Below are positions 25,595 to 32,775 of a stretch of 64,000 nucleotides of DNA, one piece after another. The stretch is from Methylophilaceae bacterium (GTDB lineage Bacteria > Pseudomonadota > Gammaproteobacteria > Burkholderiales > Methylophilaceae). The notes under the pieces were generated by a model. It did no database searches, had not been told where the DNA came from, and saw only the letters and a program-made list of their open reading frames with translations. Within the stretch, counting starts at the first letter, position 1; each line of letters opens with the position of its first letter. A program made the translations under genes and the position numbers. Location of the stretch: assembly GCA_027488395.1 (NCBI GenBank), contig JAIYBT010000015.1:116679-180678 (forward strand). The letters are read 5' to 3'.

Positions 25595-26206
25595 TTAGGT
25601 GAGTGATTGGATGAGTGGGGCGTGGCAGGCAGATTGTCGCGCTAAGGTTAACCGATGCGCGCGTATGATTGCCATTAAGTCTTGCAATGCCACGTCAAAA
25701 ATGTCGTTTATTGTAACATAATCAAAGGCATGCACATGACGCATTTCCTCGCGTGCTGCGGCTAAACGCCTTGCAATCACGGCTTCACTGTCTTGTCCGC
25801 GCTGGTTGAGCCGATGGGACAGCGCCTCCATCGAAGGGGGTAAGATAAAAATCAACGTCGCGCTCGGAAAAATGCGACGAATTTGCTCGGCACCTTGCCA
25901 ATCAATTTCTAAAATCACGTCACGCCCGGCATTCAACGCAGCCTGCACCGCAGTTTGTGAGGTGCCGTAATGTGCGCCATGTACTGCTGCACTTTCTAAA
26001 AAACCACCTTGCGCTTGCACAGCCAAAAACTCCGCTTCTGATACAAAATGGTAATGAATGCCTTCTTCTTCCCCAGGCCGAGGCGCGCGCGTGGTATGCG
26101 AGACCGATAATTTAAGCAATGGATCTTGATCCAACATGGCACGGACCAGGCTGGTTTTTCCCGCACCAGAGGCGGCTGAAATGACAAATAAATGACCGAG
26201 GCTCAT
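25595..26206 (-). CDS. gmk: Guanylate kinase
   Basis: [27 protein letters not shown]; likely start ATG 26206 overlapping the Anbu stop (ATGA). Confidence 0.97.
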
Positions 26207-26940
26207 GGTTGTACCCAATCTGGATTTGGTAATGCTGAAAATACCGATTTTAAGCCTTCGCCCCAACCTTTGCGAATGACCGCGTAATATGGATCTTGAT
26301 CGGTTAAGCGTTTAATCGGCGCAGCGCGCAAACTGTCTTTGGGGTAAATCATTAAATCGATCGGCATGGCCACCGATATATTGCTACGGATGGTCGAATC
26401 AAACGAAATCAACACACATTTAACGGCATCCATCATGTCAGTGTGATATTTCACAACACGGTCGATGATCGGTTTGCCATATTTGGTTTCACCAATTTGT
26501 AAATAAGGCGTATCCGCCGTGGCCTCAATAAAGTTTCCAGCAGCGTATACATTAAAAAGCCGGGGCTTTTCACCTTGAATTTGTCCTGCAACTAATACGC
26601 TCGCATTAAAATCAATGCCATGTTCCTTTAAGGCCTCACCATCGCGCTGAAACACGCTACGCATGGCAGCACCCACCACTGTTGCCGCCTCAAACATTGA
26701 CTGCACATTGAGTAGGTGAGTCGCATGCTCACTATTTTTGAGTTGTTCGCGTAACAAATTCACCACAGATTGCGTGATGGCTAAATTGCCAGCCGTTAGT
26801 AGCACAATCATGCGTTCACCATGATCTTCAAATACATGCATTTTAGGGGCAATCGCGACTTGATCCACCCCAGCGTTGGTGCGCGTATCTGAAGCCAACA
26901 CCAAACCTTGTTCCAGTAAAATGCCAACACAGTACGTCAT
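26203..26940 (-). CDS. Proteasome-type Ntn protease (Anbu family)
   Basis: N-terminal MTYCVG (Thr nucleophile after Met removal), SDTRTNAGVD, QIGETKYGKPIIDR, FDSTIRSNISV. Confidence 0.92.
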   Translation of the reverse strand: MTYCVGILLEQGLVLASDTRTNAGVDQVAIAPKMHVFEDHGERMIVLLTAGNLAITQSVVNLLREQLKNSEHATHLLNVQSMFEAATVVGAAMRSVFQRDGEALKEHGIDFNASVLVAGQIQGEKPRLFNVYAAGNFIEATADTPYLQIGETKYGKPIIDRVVKYHTDMMDAVKCVLISFDSTIRSNISVAMPIDLMIYPKDSLRAAPIKRLTDQDPYYAVIRKGWGEGLKSVFSALPNPDWVQP

Positions 26941-26970
26941 AACATTGTGACCGTTGTTCGATAAACCATG

Positions 26971-26979
26971 ATCATAACA
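26971..26979 (-). promoter_or_regulatory. Possible extended -10 promoter for Anbu-gmk-rpoZ-spoT
   Basis: TGtTATGAT on the minus strand about 30 nt upstream of the Anbu ATG; no good -35. Confidence 0.4.
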
Positions 26980-27244
26980 TGGGCGCTTACCGACGACGAT
27001 GGTGCGCTTTTGTACGCATACATTGCCGTGTTGTTAGCTATGGGGGTATGAATGTAGGGGAACTGTGCTTAATATCAAGCAATGGTTCCGCATGCGTGCA
27101 GTCGATACAATCGTTGTTAAGACAATCAATTTACAAGAGCGCCTAAGATTACATCAGGCTGATAGCCTTGACTGCTTTGCCTGTGCGGGGCGCATGAAAA
27201 AAACTAAACCACCCAGCAATGCTTAGCGCAACATAGACGCTAGC

Positions 27245-27277
27245 AAAAATTCCAACGGCTTAACGATAATTGGAATT
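27245..27277 (-). terminator. Possible weak terminator after the alpha-E gene
   Basis: AATTCCAA-14 nt-TTGGAATT stem ending in a short U-run on the minus strand. Confidence 0.35.
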
Positions 27278-27295
27278 GTCACAACATCAGGTCAT

Positions 27296-28240
27296 TTATA
27301 CCGTAGCGTTTAAGAAGCTACGTTGGATCTCATCGCCTAAACGACGGTTAGCCAAAATAAAATCATCTAAAAAGGTGTGTAAGCCGTCTTTTAAAATATC
27401 CAGCATACGGCCGTAGTGCAGTGTTGCATGCGTCTGCCCAGCCAACCGTTCAGCTTCGGTTTGGCGTGCCCCTGCGACTTGTCGCAAAATCGGCATGATC
27501 TCTGCATAGCAAGCATGCAATGAGCGCGGCATATCTTGTCTAAGTACCAATAGCTCAGAGACTTTCACCGGGTCTATCGCATCGCTGTAGACTTTTTGGT
27601 AGGCCTGAAACGCAGACACCGAACGCAGGACTGCACTCCATTCGTAGTAATCCACGGCGCCATCGTTGGCTGCTTGCTGAGGTATCAATACCTCATATTT
27701 CACATCGAGTAAGCGCGCGGTATTGTCAGCACGCTCCATAAAGGTTCCTAAGCGTACAAAGTTAAATGCATCATCGCGTAGCATGGTGCCAAAACATACG
27801 CCTCGGAATAAATGGGAGCGGCTTTTTACCCATTCGCAAAACTCACCCAAGCCAGATTGGGTTAAATCTTGTTTAATATACTGGCCAAACTCGAGCCAGA
27901 GGGTGTTCATGTTTTCCCAAGTTTCGACCGTCATGGCGACCCGCACGGCCCGCGCGTTTTCACGGGCACTGCGCAAAGTGCTGTAGATGCTCGAAGGATT
28001 GTGGCTATCCATGACCAAATGTTTAATCACATTGGTCGCATTAATGGTTGGATACGTGCTGTCAAAAATGTGTCGGATGCCCGCAATTTCTAATACCGCA
28101 TTCCACAAATCATGCTCGTTGCTGCTGTCACTGGGCAATAGTGACATGTTGTAGGTCACATCCAATACCCGTGCCACATTCTCTGCACGCTCTATATAGC
28201 GTGCCATCCAATATAAATTATCTGCAGTGCGGCTTAACAT
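27296..28240 (-). CDS. Alpha-E domain protein (DUF403 family)
   Basis: MLSRTADNLYWMARYIERAEN, ARENARAVR, second ER motif GTFMERADNTARLLDVK, PRSL. Confidence 0.93.
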   Translation of the reverse strand: MLSRTADNLYWMARYIERAENVARVLDVTYNMSLLPSDSSNEHDLWNAVLEIAGIRHIFDSTYPTINATNVIKHLVMDSHNPSSIYSTLRSARENARAVRVAMTVETWENMNTLWLEFGQYIKQDLTQSGLGEFCEWVKSRSHLFRGVCFGTMLRDDAFNFVRLGTFMERADNTARLLDVKYEVLIPQQAANDGAVDYYEWSAVLRSVSAFQAYQKVYSDAIDPVKVSELLVLRQDMPRSLHACYAEIMPILRQVAGARQTEAERLAGQTHATLHYGRMLDILKDGLHTFLDDFILANRRLGDEIQRSFLNATV

Positions 28241-29724
28241 ACCACCTCTTTATTGATGAACTGACTGGCATCTTGATGTTGTGACGCAGTTTGACCGATA
28301 TCATCCCGCTCAAGTACCCAAGTATCTTTGGTACCGCCACCTTGAGATGAATTCACCACCAATGAGCCCTCTTTTAAAGCGACCCGTGATAAACCACCTG
28401 GGACCACGCTAACCGATTTGCCTGATAACACAAATGGACGCAGATCCACATGGCGAGGCGCAATCCCTTGATCGACCAAAGTGGGGCAAGTCGATAATGC
28501 AAGGGTAGGTTGCGCAATGTAGTTGTCTGGTTTAGACACAATTCTGAGTCGAAACTCTTCGATTTCCTGATGGCTGGCGGTTGGCCCAACTAACATGCCA
28601 TAACCGCCAGAGCCTTGTACTTCTTTCACCACCAACTCCGCTAAATGTGCAAGCACATAAGCCAAATCATCGGCTTTGCTGAGTTGATACGTGGGCACGT
28701 TTTGCAGGATAGGCGTTTCACCTAGGTAGAACTTAATCATCTCCGGCACGTAAATATACGTTGCCTTGTCATCGGCAACGCCGGTGCCTACGGCGTTGGC
28801 CAATGTGACGCCACCGTTGCGGTAGACGGAGAGTAGACCCGGTACGCCCAACATGGAATCAGGCTTGAACACCAGTGGGTCTAGGTAGTCGTCGTCAATG
28901 CGGCGGTAAATCACGTCGACCCGTTTAGGGCCTTGCGTGGTACGCATATAGACGGCGTTATTGCGGACAAACAAATCTTGGCCTTCGACTAATTCAATGC
29001 CCATTTGTTGGGCTAAAAAGGCGTGTTCAAAATAAGCGCTGTTATACGCACCAGGTGACATCAGCACCACGGTTGGATCAGTAATTCCAGTTTGCGCTAC
29101 CGAGCGTAAGTTGTTGAGTAACACCTGTGGATAATGCTCGACCGGTGCAATGGGGTACTGACGGAATAAATCTGGAAATAACCGCATCATCATTTTGCGG
29201 TCTTCCAACATATACGACACGCCAGAAGGGGTACGCAGATTATCTTCTAATACGTAAAACTGCGATTCGCTGGTGCGCACCAAATCAATACCCGCCACAT
29301 GCGCATATACCTTGTTTGGCACATCGACCCCGACCATTTCAGGACGGTATTGACTATTGGTTAAGATGTTTTGTGGGACGATACCCGCTTTGATAATTTC
29401 TTGGTCATGATAAATATCATGTAAAAAAAGATTGAGCGCACGCACGCGTTGCACCGCGCCTGTGGATAGATGCGCCCATTCGCTGGCAGAAATCATGCGT
29501 GGAATCACATCAAACGGAATCAAGCGCTCAGCGCCATCTTCCTCACCATATACGTTAAAGGTAATGCCTACGCGGCGAAACAACACTTCTGCTTCCGCGC
29601 GTTTTGCCACCAGTTGTTGGGTGGGTACATTGGCTAACCAACGTTGATAGGCTTGATAGATCGCACGGACGTTGCCGCCATAGGCTTGCATCTCATCAAA
29701 AAACTGTTTGGCCGACTGCGTCAT
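28234..29724 (-). CDS. Circularly permuted type 2 ATP-grasp protein
   Basis: GITFNVYG, LEDNLRTPSGVSY, NSAYFEHAFLA, DVIYRRIDDDYLDP, VVNSSQGGGTKDTWV. Confidence 0.93.
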   Translation of the reverse strand: MTQSAKQFFDEMQAYGGNVRAIYQAYQRWLANVPTQQLVAKRAEAEVLFRRVGITFNVYGEEDGAERLIPFDVIPRMISASEWAHLSTGAVQRVRALNLFLHDIYHDQEIIKAGIVPQNILTNSQYRPEMVGVDVPNKVYAHVAGIDLVRTSESQFYVLEDNLRTPSGVSYMLEDRKMMMRLFPDLFRQYPIAPVEHYPQVLLNNLRSVAQTGITDPTVVLMSPGAYNSAYFEHAFLAQQMGIELVEGQDLFVRNNAVYMRTTQGPKRVDVIYRRIDDDYLDPLVFKPDSMLGVPGLLSVYRNGGVTLANAVGTGVADDKATYIYVPEMIKFYLGETPILQNVPTYQLSKADDLAYVLAHLAELVVKEVQGSGGYGMLVGPTASHQEIEEFRLRIVSKPDNYIAQPTLALSTCPTLVDQGIAPRHVDLRPFVLSGKSVSVVPGGLSRVALKEGSLVVNSSQGGGTKDTWVLERDDIGQTASQHQDASQFINKEVVC

Positions 29725-29768
29725 CTTGCGAGACCTTTGCTCTACTCAATAGAATTTAGATTATATTG

Positions 29769-29784
29769 AGCAAACGCTGTGCCA
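29769..29784 (-). promoter_or_regulatory. Sigma54 (-24/-12) promoter of the ATP-grasp/alpha-E unit
   Basis: Minus strand TGGCAC-AGCGT-TTGCT, exact match to TGGCAC-N5-TTGCW. Confidence 0.88.
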
Positions 29785-29802
29785 AGCCATTTTTTATTTT
29801 TA

Positions 29803-29815
29803 AATCAGCGGTTTA
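29803..29815 (+). promoter_or_regulatory. IHF binding site
   Basis: AATCAGCGGTTTA fits WATCARNNNNTTR, preceded by an A/T tract; lies between promoter and enhancers. Confidence 0.65.
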
Positions 29816-29845
29816 TTTAAAAATCGATAAATATCATTGAAAAAA

Positions 29846-29886
29846 CGCACCTATTTGGTGCGTTTGAGAATCACGGTTTTGGTGCA
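29846..29886. promoter_or_regulatory. Two NtrC-type enhancer sites
   Basis: CGCACC-TATTT-GGTGCG (29846-29862, perfect palindrome) and minus-strand TGCACCAAAACCGTGAT (29870-29886); centres about -96 and -120 from the predicted TSS near 29758. Confidence 0.78.
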
Positions 29887-29946
29887 ATTAAGCATTTGTG
29901 TGCGCTATCCAATCAACAAGCCCACACCATCACATGCAAAACCTGC

Positions 29947-30828
29947 TTATTCTAGGTTTTGAATTTGTTCACGCATTTGCTCAATCAGCACTTTAAGTTG
30001 CATTGAGATTTGTGTGGTTTCAATCGCAACCGATTTTGAGCCTAAGGTGTTGGCTTCTCGGTTCATCTCTTGCATCAAAAAATCAAGCTTTTTACCGACA
30101 CTACCACCTGCCTCAAGGATGCGTGCCACTTCAGTGATGTGTGACTGCAAACGCGCCAGTTCTTCATCCACATCGATACGTTGCGCAAACAAGACGATTT
30201 CCTGACGCACCCGCTCATCATCGGCCAGCATCGCCTCACGTAATTTTGTGATCAGCTTTTCTTGATATTGATGTATCAGCGCGGGCATCAGCGGTTTGAC
30301 TAAAGCCACTTGCTCGCGCACCAGAGATAGTTTTTCCAACATTACCTGTTTGAGCTTTTCACCTTCACGTTGCCGTGCCGCGATGAGTTCTTGGATGGTC
30401 TGTGCCAGACCGACGTTTAAGCAATCGGCCAATTGCGTGAGGTCAAGGCCTTCGCCTTGCACAACCCCAGGTAATTGATAAATATCCACCAAATTCACGG
30501 GCTGTGCTTCTGGGAAATAAGTCGACAATTGTTGAATCGCATCGGCAATTTGCGTGATTACCGCTGTGTTTAAACGCAATGCAGTGCTCGCCACATGATC
30601 TGTTTTTAAACTCAAACGGCATTCAACTTTACCGCGCCCCAATTGCGCTTGTAACTGCTCACGCACCAAGCCTTCAAATTGACGCAAACTATCCTCAATT
30701 TTGACATGCAGTTCGAGATAACGATGATTGACGGCACGACATTCAATCAACAAGGTGCCACTTTCAAAACGGCTCTCGCTGGCAGCAAAGCCAGTCATAC
30801 TTAAAATCGGTCGCGTGGTGCTTGCCAT
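29947..30828 (-). CDS. yicC: YicC/YloC family endoribonuclease
   Basis: SMTGFA, VNHRYLEL, RGKVEC, GKKLDFLMQEMNREANTLGSK, EQMREQIQNLE. Confidence 0.96.
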   Translation of the reverse strand: MASTTRPILSMTGFAASESRFESGTLLIECRAVNHRYLELHVKIEDSLRQFEGLVREQLQAQLGRGKVECRLSLKTDHVASTALRLNTAVITQIADAIQQLSTYFPEAQPVNLVDIYQLPGVVQGEGLDLTQLADCLNVGLAQTIQELIAARQREGEKLKQVMLEKLSLVREQVALVKPLMPALIHQYQEKLITKLREAMLADDERVRQEIVLFAQRIDVDEELARLQSHITEVARILEAGGSVGKKLDFLMQEMNREANTLGSKSVAIETTQISMQLKVLIEQMREQIQNLE

Positions 30829-30931
30829 GATGGGTCTCGTGCTAAGAAGGGGGTGATTGTATCAAATGCCCTAGGGTTATGCGAAAATAGACAAATTGCG
30901 TGCGCGCGTCTTGCCCTGTGGCCCAAAGGTT

Positions 30932-31861
30932 GTGAAGGTATCCCATAAAACGCAGTTTGCTTTGCCAGTTGGCACCGTCTTACACGAATACACGATTACC
31001 CGCTTATTGAGTTTGGGCGGCTTTAGTTTCGTCTATTTAGCTAAAGACGCGCAAAAGCGCACCGTCGCCATTAAAGAGTATATGCCCGTGAGCTTGGCCG
31101 AGCGCCATGGGAGCCAAGTGACGCCCAATGGCAAAAACGACACAGCCTTTAAGCATGGGATGAAGTGTTTTTTTGAAGAAGGCTTGGCACTGGCCAATAT
31201 TGAACACAAAAACATTGTGCGGGTACAAAACTTTTTTAGAGCGCACAGCACCGTGTACATGGTGATGAAGTACGAGCGCGGTAAATCGCTACAAGATTAC
31301 ATCATGGCCGTGCAACAGCCTATCCCTGAAGCGTTTTTATTGCGTATGTTTGCAGAGTTGCTCAATGGCTTGCGCGAAGTGCATTTGCGCAAAGTGCTGC
31401 ATTTAGACATCAAGCCTGCCAATATTTATATTCGGTTGGATGGCTCACCGGTGTTGTTAGATTTTGGGTCTGCGCGCCAAGCGTTGTCAGAGGCGACGCT
31501 TGCACCTACCTTCACCCCCGGGTTTGCCTCGCCAGAGCAATATTATGACCGTAAGCATTTGGGGCCTTGGAGTGATATTTACAGTATCGGCGCTAGTTTA
31601 TACGCTTGTTTACATCGCACATCCCCGCAACCAGCCAATGCGCGTATGCAACAAGATAGTTTGCAGCCAGCAAGTCAGCTCGGTAAACATATTTATTCTG
31701 AAAAATTGCTTGCGATTATTGATGAGTGTATGCAGCTTGATTATTTGCAGCGCCCCCAAAGTGTATTTTCATTACAAAAGAAAATCATCGATATCGCTAA
31801 CACGGCCGCCCCAACCACAGTGGCCGATAAACTGTTTCAACTGCTCACAAAACCATTATGA
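30932..31861 (+). CDS. Hanks-type Ser/Thr protein kinase, cytoplasmic
   Basis: SLGGFSFVY, AIKEY, HLDIKPAN, DFG, PEQ, SDIYSIG; no TM segment; likely GTG start 30932 (track 30896). Confidence 0.93.
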   Translation: MKVSHKTQFALPVGTVLHEYTITRLLSLGGFSFVYLAKDAQKRTVAIKEYMPVSLAERHGSQVTPNGKNDTAFKHGMKCFFEEGLALANIEHKNIVRVQNFFRAHSTVYMVMKYERGKSLQDYIMAVQQPIPEAFLLRMFAELLNGLREVHLRKVLHLDIKPANIYIRLDGSPVLLDFGSARQALSEATLAPTFTPGFASPEQYYDRKHLGPWSDIYSIGASLYACLHRTSPQPANARMQQDSLQPASQLGKHIYSEKLLAIIDECMQLDYLQRPQSVFSLQKKIIDIANTAAPTTVADKLFQLLTKPL

Positions 31862-32775
31862 AATTTTCCATTGCACAGGGCAGTCGTCAGGGGCCGCGGA
31901 CTTATAACCAAGACCGCTTGGCCTATACTTATAATCGTCAAGCCATTTTGATGGTCTTAGCGGATGGCATGGGCGGCCATTTGCATGGCGAGGTGGCCGC
32001 CGACATTGTCGTGAAAGGCATGATTGAAGCGTTTCATCGTGAGGCAACGCCGCTGATTGGTCATCCTGCACAGTTCTTGCGCACCCACATACAACAACTG
32101 CACACCGTCATTGAGCGTGTAAAGCAACAAAAAAATCTCCATGAATCGCCACGCACGACAGTGGTAGTGACCTTAATCCAACATAATCTTTTATTTTGTG
32201 CGCATGTTGGTGATTCTCGTTGCTATGTCTACCGAAACGGCTTGTCTGCTTTTCAAACACAAGATCATTCAGTAGTACAGTCGTTGTTACGCGAAGGCAA
32301 AATTAGCGAGACAGAGCTCAATACGCACCCACATCGCAATAAAATTTATAATTGTGTGGGGGGTGATCACGCGCCCGAAGTGGAGTTATCGGATCCGATT
32401 GCACTGATTGAAGGTGACGTCGTGTTGCTTTGCTCGGACGGGGTGTGGAACGCATTGCCCGAATTAACCATGGCGCAACATACGCTTGCTGCAGACGTCA
32501 GTGATACGGTTCACCGTTTGTTGGACGATGCCGAAGCTGCGAGTTTGCAAGGGGGTGACAATATGAGTACGGTTGCCCTGCAATGGGGGGATCGTCAACA
32601 TGCCCGCTTTACCATCTCGACCTTGGATCTACCCATTGACGGTAACACGACCATGATTAATCAAGTGAAGCTCAATGCGGATACCCCCGCCCTCGATTTA
32701 ACCGACGCTGAAATAGAACGTGCGATTGCCGAAATCCACGAAGCCCTAGGCAAAACCAGACAGATACTTAAATAA
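31858..32775 (+). CDS. PP2C/PPM-family Ser/Thr phosphatase
   Basis: [35 protein letters not shown]; ATGA overlap with kinase. Confidence 0.95.

Follow-up and report, generated by a model that had tools for sequence, protein, structure and literature searches.

A predicted sigma-54- and NtrC-dependent nitrogen-limitation promoter upstream of the Anbu operon in Methylophilus

In this work, we present a comparative sequence analysis of a putative promoter located in a 64,000-nucleotide (nt) stretch of Methylophilaceae DNA, called the window below. The source genome is a Methylophilus of 2.45 Mb, and the region of interest is a 222-nt spacer between two minus-strand genes, yicC (upstream) and a gene for a circularly permuted ATP-grasp protein (downstream), the latter opening the operon of Anbu, the ancestral beta-subunit proteasome homologue. 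The spacer holds four elements: a sigma-54 -24/-12 core, a site for integration host factor (IHF) and two NtrC-type palindromes of unequal strength. We conclude that this stretch is very probably an NtrC/sigma-54, IHF-assisted promoter, which would place the Methylophilus Anbu operon under nitrogen-limitation control. Binding of NtrC and IHF, bending of the DNA, the transcription start and induction upon nitrogen limitation are all predictions made from sequence. The elements stand in the correct order and orientation just before a start codon, an arrangement which, judged from the letters, is far beyond chance, and this point is settled by the comparative data.

Elements of the promoter

Positions are those of the window, and distances with a minus sign are counted from the predicted start (+1) unless the TGGCAC or TGGCA element is named as the reference.

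29784 to 29769, minus strand: sigma-54 -24/-12 core TGGCACAGCGTTTGCT, that is TGGCAC-AGCGT-TTGCT, read directly, exact at 16/16 positions
29757 to 29759, minus strand: predicted +1, at about 29758, 12 nt after the C of the GC doublet, placed by sigma-54 promoter geometry
29725 to 29756, minus strand: 5' leader of 34 nt with a ribosome-binding site AAAGG (29738-29734), 9 nt before the ATG at 29724
29788 to 29822, plus strand: candidate IHF site, with the core AATCAGCGGTTTA at 29803-29815 and an A/T tract at 29788-29802 on the promoter side
29862 to 29846, no strand assigned: proximal, strong NtrC-type site CGCACCAAATAGGTGCG, centre 29854 (-96), a perfect GCACC-N5-GGTGC
29886 to 29870, no strand assigned: distal, weak NtrC-type site TGCACCAAAACCGTGAT, centre 29878 (-120)

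A preliminary description of this DNA had placed a -24/-12 motif TGGCAC-N5-TTGCT at 29769-29784, and the match on the minus strand is exact. Its GG (29783/29782) and GC (29771/29770) doublets are exactly 10 bp apart, and the core stands 45 nt before the ATG of the ATP-grasp gene. The distances proposed together with it, namely +1 near 29758 by geometry, an IHF consensus at about -45 to -57 and further sites at -96 and -120, also proved correct from the sequence. The strict pattern TGGCAC-N5-TTGCW is present once in the window and 8 times in the whole 2.45-Mb genome. With one mismatch allowed it was found 7 times in the window against 6.1 expected, which is the chance level, and for this reason the core by itself is weak evidence.

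Scanning for sigma-70-like promoters gave none on the minus strand between yicC and the ATP-grasp ATG, and in the Rfam scan of the intergenic region no family reached its threshold. A match to the narK RNA (RF03032) at 29728-29783 on the minus strand, with 16.7 bits against a gathering cut-off of 43.2 (E 0.86), was rejected as probably due to chance. This sub-threshold match overlaps the sigma-54 core and the leader, and it raises the question of a sigma-54 promoter inside RF03032.

The IHF core AATCAGCGGTTTA agrees exactly with WATCAR-N4-TTR and occupies -45 to -57, as had been claimed, on the strand opposite to transcription. It is held in a 62-nt spacer of 21% G+C, in which an exact core is expected by chance with a frequency of about 0.03 (0.046 per 100 nt when both strands of AT-rich DNA are counted). 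Genes ihfA and ihfB are both encoded in the genome (TIGR00987, 147.2 bits, and TIGR00988, 136.6 bits, both above the NCBIfam cut-off). From the conserved consensus we infer that IHF would bind at this promoter.

The two NtrC-type sites, which start at -78 (proximal) and -102 (distal) from TGGCAC, are of different quality. In the proximal site only outer positions depart from the longer consensus TGCACC-N5-GGTGCA (2 mismatches), and on the minus strand it is directly followed by TTTTTT reaching 29840. The distal site has 3 mismatches to the same consensus, its left half being consensus at 7/7 positions and its right half degenerate (3/7). Both had been announced as sites of the GCACC-N5-GGTGC type; the proximal one deserves the label in full, while for the distal one, which has only half of the consensus, it was an overstatement. 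Sites with up to 2 mismatches to TGCACC-N5-GGTGCA number 99 in the genome, about 1 per 25 kb.

Nitrogen-control genes and NtrC-type sites elsewhere in the genome

The genome encodes RpoN (contig C18, frame of 515 aa; PF04552, 227.8 bits) and five proteins whose sigma-54 activator domain scores strongly (218-244 bits). The sole activator that passes the NtrC equivalog model (TIGR01818, 708.8 bits against 558.6) is encoded at C6:12780-14171, downstream of glnA and of a 372-aa open reading frame (ORF) which, by its position, is taken as NtrB.

In order to score the palindromes, a weight matrix was prepared from 40 glnA promoter sites of 20 other Methylophilaceae genomes, with the window's genome excluded. 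Upstream of glnA all 20 genomes carry TGGCAY-N5-CTGCT or a close variant, and in most of them a pair of NtrC palindromes is located about -107/-108 and -77/-78 from TGGCA, with shifts of up to about 11 nt in a few. Since the second of these locations holds family-wide (the proximal glnA site starts at -76 to -79 from TGGCA in most genomes), the proximal sites of glnA and of the ATP-grasp gene (-78 from TGGCAC) share their spacing to the -24 element.

With this matrix the proximal ATP-grasp site reaches 21.1 bits and ranks second among 2,448,957 genome positions (P 8e-7 per position), ahead of the genome's own glnA (18.8 bits) and amtB (19.3 bits) sites. The distal site, with 8.6 bits (P 1.7e-4 per position), is comparable to the weak partner site of glnA (9.1 bits). 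All 9 of the top 9 matches are intergenic and 7 of them have a sigma-54 core 78-195 nt away (6 within 131 nt); because of this, and because of a further match upstream of an ANTAR-domain gene, we regard the matrix as validated as a detector of the nitrogen regulon. In a separate scan of the same genome, sigma-54 cores located before ORFs were combined with NtrC-like palindromes. Counted from TGGCA, NtrC-type sites were found at -108/-78 for glnA, -97 for amtB, -90 for the gene of an NMT1-type binding protein and -102/-78 for the ATP-grasp gene, and the same type of palindrome lies 78-108 nt upstream of sigma-54 cores at the glnA, amtB, NMT1-type and ANTAR genes.

The promoter might still be of the sigma-54 class and be driven by one of the four other enhancer-binding proteins, in response to a signal other than nitrogen. 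Such a view can draw on the presence of five encoded activator-domain proteins and on the fact that palindromic enhancers of different activators can look alike. We consider it very unlikely, as palindromes of this type and spacing precede glnA in 20 family members as well as amtB and glnA of the same genome, the other four proteins pass no equivalog cut-off whereas one protein passes the NtrC model, and homologous operons depend on ntrC in Pseudomonas putida and Burkholderia cenocepacia (PMC7801951, PMC5491218).

Some further sites were recorded in the course of these scans. At C16:21505-21910 (L238:156-560) an NtrC-type site TGCACTGTGTTGGTGCG (15.8 bits, rank 13) lies 104 nt before a sigma-54 core TGGCATAGCGTTTGCT, which precedes the gene for an 80-aa stand-alone ANTAR-domain protein (PF03861, E 1.4e-7), followed by a tRNA gene; this protein is likely a nitrogen-regulated antiterminator. 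The best match of the genome to the matrix, TGCACCTTAATGGTGCG (C20:13879-13895, 21.4 bits), is followed by TTTTTT, has no sigma-54 core within 230 nt and is situated about 190 nt before the gene for a secreted trypsin-like/TPR protein; palindrome and T-run together may represent a terminator that happens to resemble an NtrC site, or else an NtrC site used for some other purpose. The region C5:76198-76963 combines an NtrC-type site TGCACCTTTTTGATGCA (17.9 bits) with an IHF core and a degenerate sigma-54 core; the gene behind them encodes a 176-aa secreted protein, in which a PEP-CTERM-like C-terminus was read by eye and which has no Pfam hit.

Conservation of the arrangement in related loci

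The comparative part drew on the 80 loci whose ATP-grasp proteins are most closely related to that of the window. A sigma-54 core with up to 2 mismatches is present 20-90 nt before the ATP-grasp ATG in 37 of them, which together with the window gives 38 core-bearing loci; among the taxa are Methylophilus, Methylotenera, Methyloradius, Methylomonas (two species), and Gallionella-like and Rhodocyclaceae genomes. A palindrome with up to 3 mismatches accompanies the core at 30 of the 38 loci, and in 22 of these 30 the best palindrome falls within a 5-bp window at -75 to -79 from TGGCAC, against about 1.4 expected if placement were even. An exact IHF core occurs at -29 to -31 from TGGCAC, always on the strand opposite to transcription, at 14 of the 38 loci, including those of Methylotenera, Methylomonas and Gallionella-like genomes. 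Across loci, the DNA that separates the elements cannot be aligned.

The distal site has a narrower distribution. Its 17-mer is kept in five Methylophilus genomes (the window's and four others) amid diverged flanks, and in loci of the Methylotenera type its place is taken by another half-consensus site, located about 40 bp more upstream. Both scans for related loci, made with the window and Methylomonas ATP-grasp proteins as queries, returned beta-proteobacterial-type relatives only and no Pseudomonas.

The placement of the ATP-grasp module in the nitrogen regulon, which was the core of the preliminary description, is supported by the encoded factors, by the glnA-like site and spacing, and by this conservation across families. 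The same data bear on whether the motifs merely came together by chance in an AT-rich spacer, with the operon transcribed either from a sigma-70 promoter that escaped recognition or by yicC read-through. The chance frequency of the one-mismatch sigma-54 pattern in the window speaks for such a coincidence, as do IHF-like cores being fairly frequent in AT-rich DNA. Its probability is nevertheless close to negligible in our estimation: an exact core, the second-best NtrC site of the genome and an IHF core are ordered and oriented 45 nt before the ATG, the layout is kept across several families although the sequence between the elements cannot be aligned, and the minus strand showed no sigma-70-like promoter in the stretch from yicC to the ATG.

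Most Oxalobacteraceae loci have a variant core, TGGCACGTTTCTTGATA / TGGCACGYTTCTTGATA, with TTGAT at -12. In a set of Oxalobacteraceae and related loci (L055, L068, L074, L079, L066, L048 and L040) we noticed a conserved CTGGCACG(T/C)TTCTTGATA, in which TTGAT replaces TTGCW, some 60-90 nt ahead of the ATP-grasp start codon. In Duganella and Massilia the variant core is preceded at a distance of only about 25 nt by an NtrC-like site, far closer than a normal enhancer; this layout may reflect either a different activation geometry or NtrC acting in another way.

Hairpin at the proximal site

The proximal palindrome overlaps one more feature.

29840 to 29865, minus strand: hairpin AAACGCACC-AAATA-GGTGCGTTT with a U-run; it overlaps the proximal NtrC site and lies 82 nt downstream of the yicC stop codon

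The arms AAACGCACC/GGUGCGUUU form a 9-bp stem (-13.3 kcal/mol, z -5.8) within which the UUUUUU begins, and the hairpin is present as well when the entire intergenic RNA is folded to its minimum free energy (MFE) structure; it was not among the calls of the consensus terminator scan. In M. flavus and M. medardicus A/U additions to the arms lengthen the stem to 12-13 pairs (-16.1 and -19.4 kcal/mol). Conservation of these extended arms is confined to Methylophilus. Other genera lack them and have a weak hairpin with no U-run, even with yicC upstream, and the palindrome still stands at the same spacing. At loci L022, L025, L034, L036, L037, L049, L052 and L086 the palindrome at -75 to -79 from TGGCAC is retained without yicC upstream.

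One may thus ask if the palindrome is primarily a Rho-independent terminator of yicC, with an incidental likeness to NtrC sites, and if the sigma-54 core is silent or served by an unrecognised enhancer. The hairpin with its U-run 82 nt after the yicC stop, its stability and its presence in the intergenic MFE structure would fit a terminator, and the stems of 12-13 pairs in M. flavus and M. medardicus exceed what an NtrC dimer needs. This explanation has, in our view, a very small probability. The GCAC...GTGC palindrome is found at -75 to -79 from TGGCAC in loci without yicC upstream; Methylotenera-type loci keep it with no U-run and with a hairpin no better than in shuffled sequences; the letters of the half-sites are conserved and not merely complementary; and the site is the second-best match of the genome to the glnA-derived matrix. 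The reading of the palindrome as a terminator only was rejected on comparative grounds, because the palindrome persists at the same spacing both without a strong hairpin and without yicC. A dual role of the proximal site in Methylophilus, as an enhancer in DNA and a terminator of yicC in RNA, is compatible with all the data, and we put it forward tentatively, within the favoured interpretation, as a real possibility that falls somewhat short of a probable one.

A separate inverted repeat, CAAAACCT-N9-AGGTTTTG, spans the yicC stop codon at 29937-29961 and has a terminator-like score on the plus strand only.

Proposed mechanism and points against it

The NtrC/sigma-54 promoter would work in the following way. 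RNA polymerase with sigma-54 would wait as a closed complex on TGGCAC-N5-TTGCT (29784..29769) until nitrogen becomes scarce and NtrB phosphorylates NtrC. Phosphorylated NtrC would occupy the strong palindrome at -96 and cooperatively recruit a second dimer to the weak site at -120, so that an active oligomer could form. IHF bound at -45 to -57 would bend the 62-nt AT-rich spacer and bring the NtrC oligomer into contact with the polymerase, and ATP hydrolysis by the oligomer would then remodel the closed complex and open the promoter, with transcription from about 29758. The resulting transcript should yield the ATP-grasp protein and a translationally coupled Alpha-E protein.

Several points weigh against this interpretation. 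Many of the related loci are close relatives and not all of them are independent, so that the locus counts overstate the independent support. The Methylomonas ATP-grasp copy is 76% identical to the window protein and 84% to the Gallionella copy, and because of these values it looks horizontally related. Among distant homologues (50-56% identity, sampled across the class) the core with up to 2 mismatches was found in only 11 of 40; the architecture being universal for the ATP-grasp gene family was rejected for this reason, and the promoter arrangement is lineage-specific. The glnA training sites were picked by their likeness to the E. coli NtrC consensus, and the matrix is therefore not fully independent of that consensus. 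The distal site is a half-consensus one, and the spacing of the two sites is 24 bp, or about 2.3 helical turns, compared with 30 bp at glnA, and the proximal palindrome has the features of a terminator as well.

Genes of the operon and its downstream part

The genes on both sides of the promoter are as follows.

28234 to 29724, minus strand: circularly permuted ATP-grasp protein, 496 aa (PF14403, E 1.5e-165)
27296 to 28240, minus strand: Alpha-E protein, 314 aa (PF04168, E 1e-97), whose start overlaps the ATP-grasp stop by 7 nt
26203 to 26940, minus strand: Anbu, 245 aa, with matches to Anbu chains in the PDB
29947 to 30828, minus strand: yicC, the upstream gene, of the YicC/YloC endoribonuclease family (Pfam YicC-like N- and C-terminal domains; TIGR00255)

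The ATP-grasp protein of the window is 92% identical to its orthologues in M. flavus and M. medardicus, and YicC scores 261.7 bits with TIGR00255 against a cut-off of 167.5. The 245-aa downstream protein is unmistakably Anbu (PDB 5LOY, E 1.4e-94; 5LOX, 5NYF and 5NYJ, about 1e-70). Consequently, what had been labelled an uncharacterised ligase module is in fact the known Anbu operon, with its ATP-grasp, Alpha-E and Anbu genes, here without the transglutaminase gene. Divergent from yicC, at 30896-32775 of the window, there is a pair of genes for a Ser/Thr protein kinase and a PP2C phosphatase, and the kinase-yicC-ATP-grasp synteny is kept in Methylophilus and Methylotenera (loci L013-L021 and L039).

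Between Alpha-E and Anbu there is a 355-nt gap (26941-27295), in which the usual transglutaminase gene is lacking. M. flavus has in the transglutaminase position a 279-aa ORF (L013:6506-7345), assigned by that position; when the gap was compared with the M. flavus region, only the Alpha-E end and the start of Anbu aligned, and tblastn detected no remnant of the M. flavus ORF in the 355 nt. Distant paralogues (25-29% identity) are encoded on contigs C1 and C23 only. Two features were seen on the minus strand of the gap, a weak terminator-like one at 27257-27238 and a sigma-70-like one at 27078-27051.

Further downstream the Anbu stop codon and the start of gmk overlap as ATGA (26203-26206, gmk starting at 26206), and rpoZ and spoT follow. 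The adjacency of Anbu and gmk is found also in M. flavus, M. medardicus, Methylotenera versatilis and others. Because of the overlap, the promoter could feed gmk-rpoZ-spoT. That transcripts would run through the gap and Anbu into gmk-rpoZ-spoT and, jointly, that the proximal site would serve both as an NtrC enhancer and as a yicC terminator, seems to us rather unlikely. If it were true, read-through into spoT would mean that nitrogen starvation directly raises expression of a (p)ppGpp synthetase/hydrolase. Such wiring would be analogous to the route from NtrC to relA in E. coli, where NtrC is reported by Brown et al. (2014) to activate relA.

A paralogous module is present on another contig (C1:62369-69157). 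It comprises a 1095-aa transglutaminase-like ORF, an 849-aa frame that holds an ATP-grasp homologue of 36% identity, and a further, smaller gene of the transglutaminase-like kind, and its first ORF is preceded at 40 nt by a sigma-54-like core TGGCATGTTTCCTGCA. This module resembles the NtrC/sigma-54-controlled I35_5080-83 cluster of B. cenocepacia.

Comparison with known systems and significance

A close parallel in promoter anatomy is glnA of the Methylophilaceae, which likewise has a sigma-54 core and two NtrC palindromes, a strong one paired with a weaker one, the proximal site being 76-79 nt before TGGCA. The two promoters differ in the distance between the sites (30 bp at glnA, 24 bp at the ATP-grasp gene) and in the core, which is TGGCAY-N5-CTGCT at glnA and has the full consensus TTGCT here. 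In this genome the strong site of glnA is the distal one, and that of the ATP-grasp gene the proximal one. The textbook case of such a promoter, E. coli glnAp2, is not known to need IHF. E. coli glnHp2 and P. putida glnK have the same order of NtrC sites, IHF and -24/-12 element, with IHF thought to bend the spacer, and the glnK promoter was reportedly described by Hervas et al. in 2009 as having two contiguous NtrC sites and a requirement for IHF.

With respect to the operon and its regulation, the counterpart is PP_2688-PP_2685 of P. putida KT2440, where the circularly permuted ATP-grasp gene is also first and the Anbu gene last. PP_2685 and PP_2688 are 16-22-fold up on nitrate compared with ammonium (log2 fold change about 4-4.4), and a 200-300-bp fragment from upstream of PP_2688 gives a reporter a response to nitrogen limitation (PMC8050072). 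The genes PP_2685-88 were assigned to NtrB/NtrC control (PMC7801951), and upregulation of P. putida Anbu under nitrogen limitation is attributed to Hervas 2008 where that work is cited in PMC5666114 and PMC6376114. The induction of the Pseudomonas homologues by nitrogen limitation, which the preliminary description had mentioned, is borne out by these four papers, the last two by way of citation. The P. putida operon keeps the transglutaminase (PP_2686) and has a separate constitutive promoter for Anbu (PMC8050072), in contrast to the operon of the window, which has no transglutaminase gene and continues into gmk-rpoZ-spoT.

In B. cenocepacia H111 the genes I35_5080-83 are 6- to 9.4-fold down in an ntrC mutant and are also sigma-54 targets under nitrogen limitation (PMC5491218). 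Like the operon of the window, I35_5080-5083 is a beta-proteobacterial module with a DUF404/DUF407 ATP-grasp protein and a DUF403 Alpha-E protein; it differs in having a large transglutaminase-like protein and no Anbu, and it is a paralogue of this type that the other contig carries here. The report gives no site-level description of the I35_5080-5083 promoter (PMC5491218). A survey from 2025 found the proteasome-type protease COG3484 enriched in predicted sigma-54 regulons of Proteobacteria (PMC12316311), and the main text of an NtrC ChIP-exo paper on Methylomonas sp. DH-1 does not mention the Anbu operon (PMC12799797). Since the P. putida, B. cenocepacia and COG3484 reports precede our analysis, membership of the Anbu operon in the nitrogen regulon is not new, being known from Pseudomonas and Burkholderia. 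What is added here is the site-level anatomy for the Methylophilaceae, a phasing identical to that of glnA and the possible overlap of enhancer and terminator.

The promoter finding by itself opens no new question. As a compact promoter of about 130 bp, it is a candidate nitrogen-limitation reporter for the Methylophilaceae. On the Anbu system the literature offers a single firm lead, namely that in Pseudomonas and Burkholderia it is induced when nitrogen is limiting. The same nitrogen control appears to be hard-wired, with NtrC sites of glnA grade, in methylotrophic Betaproteobacteria, and in the window genome it seems to persist despite the loss of transglutaminase. Such control in methylotrophs, even without transglutaminase, would therefore make a stronger case for a role of the Anbu system in nitrogen scavenging or proteome remodelling.

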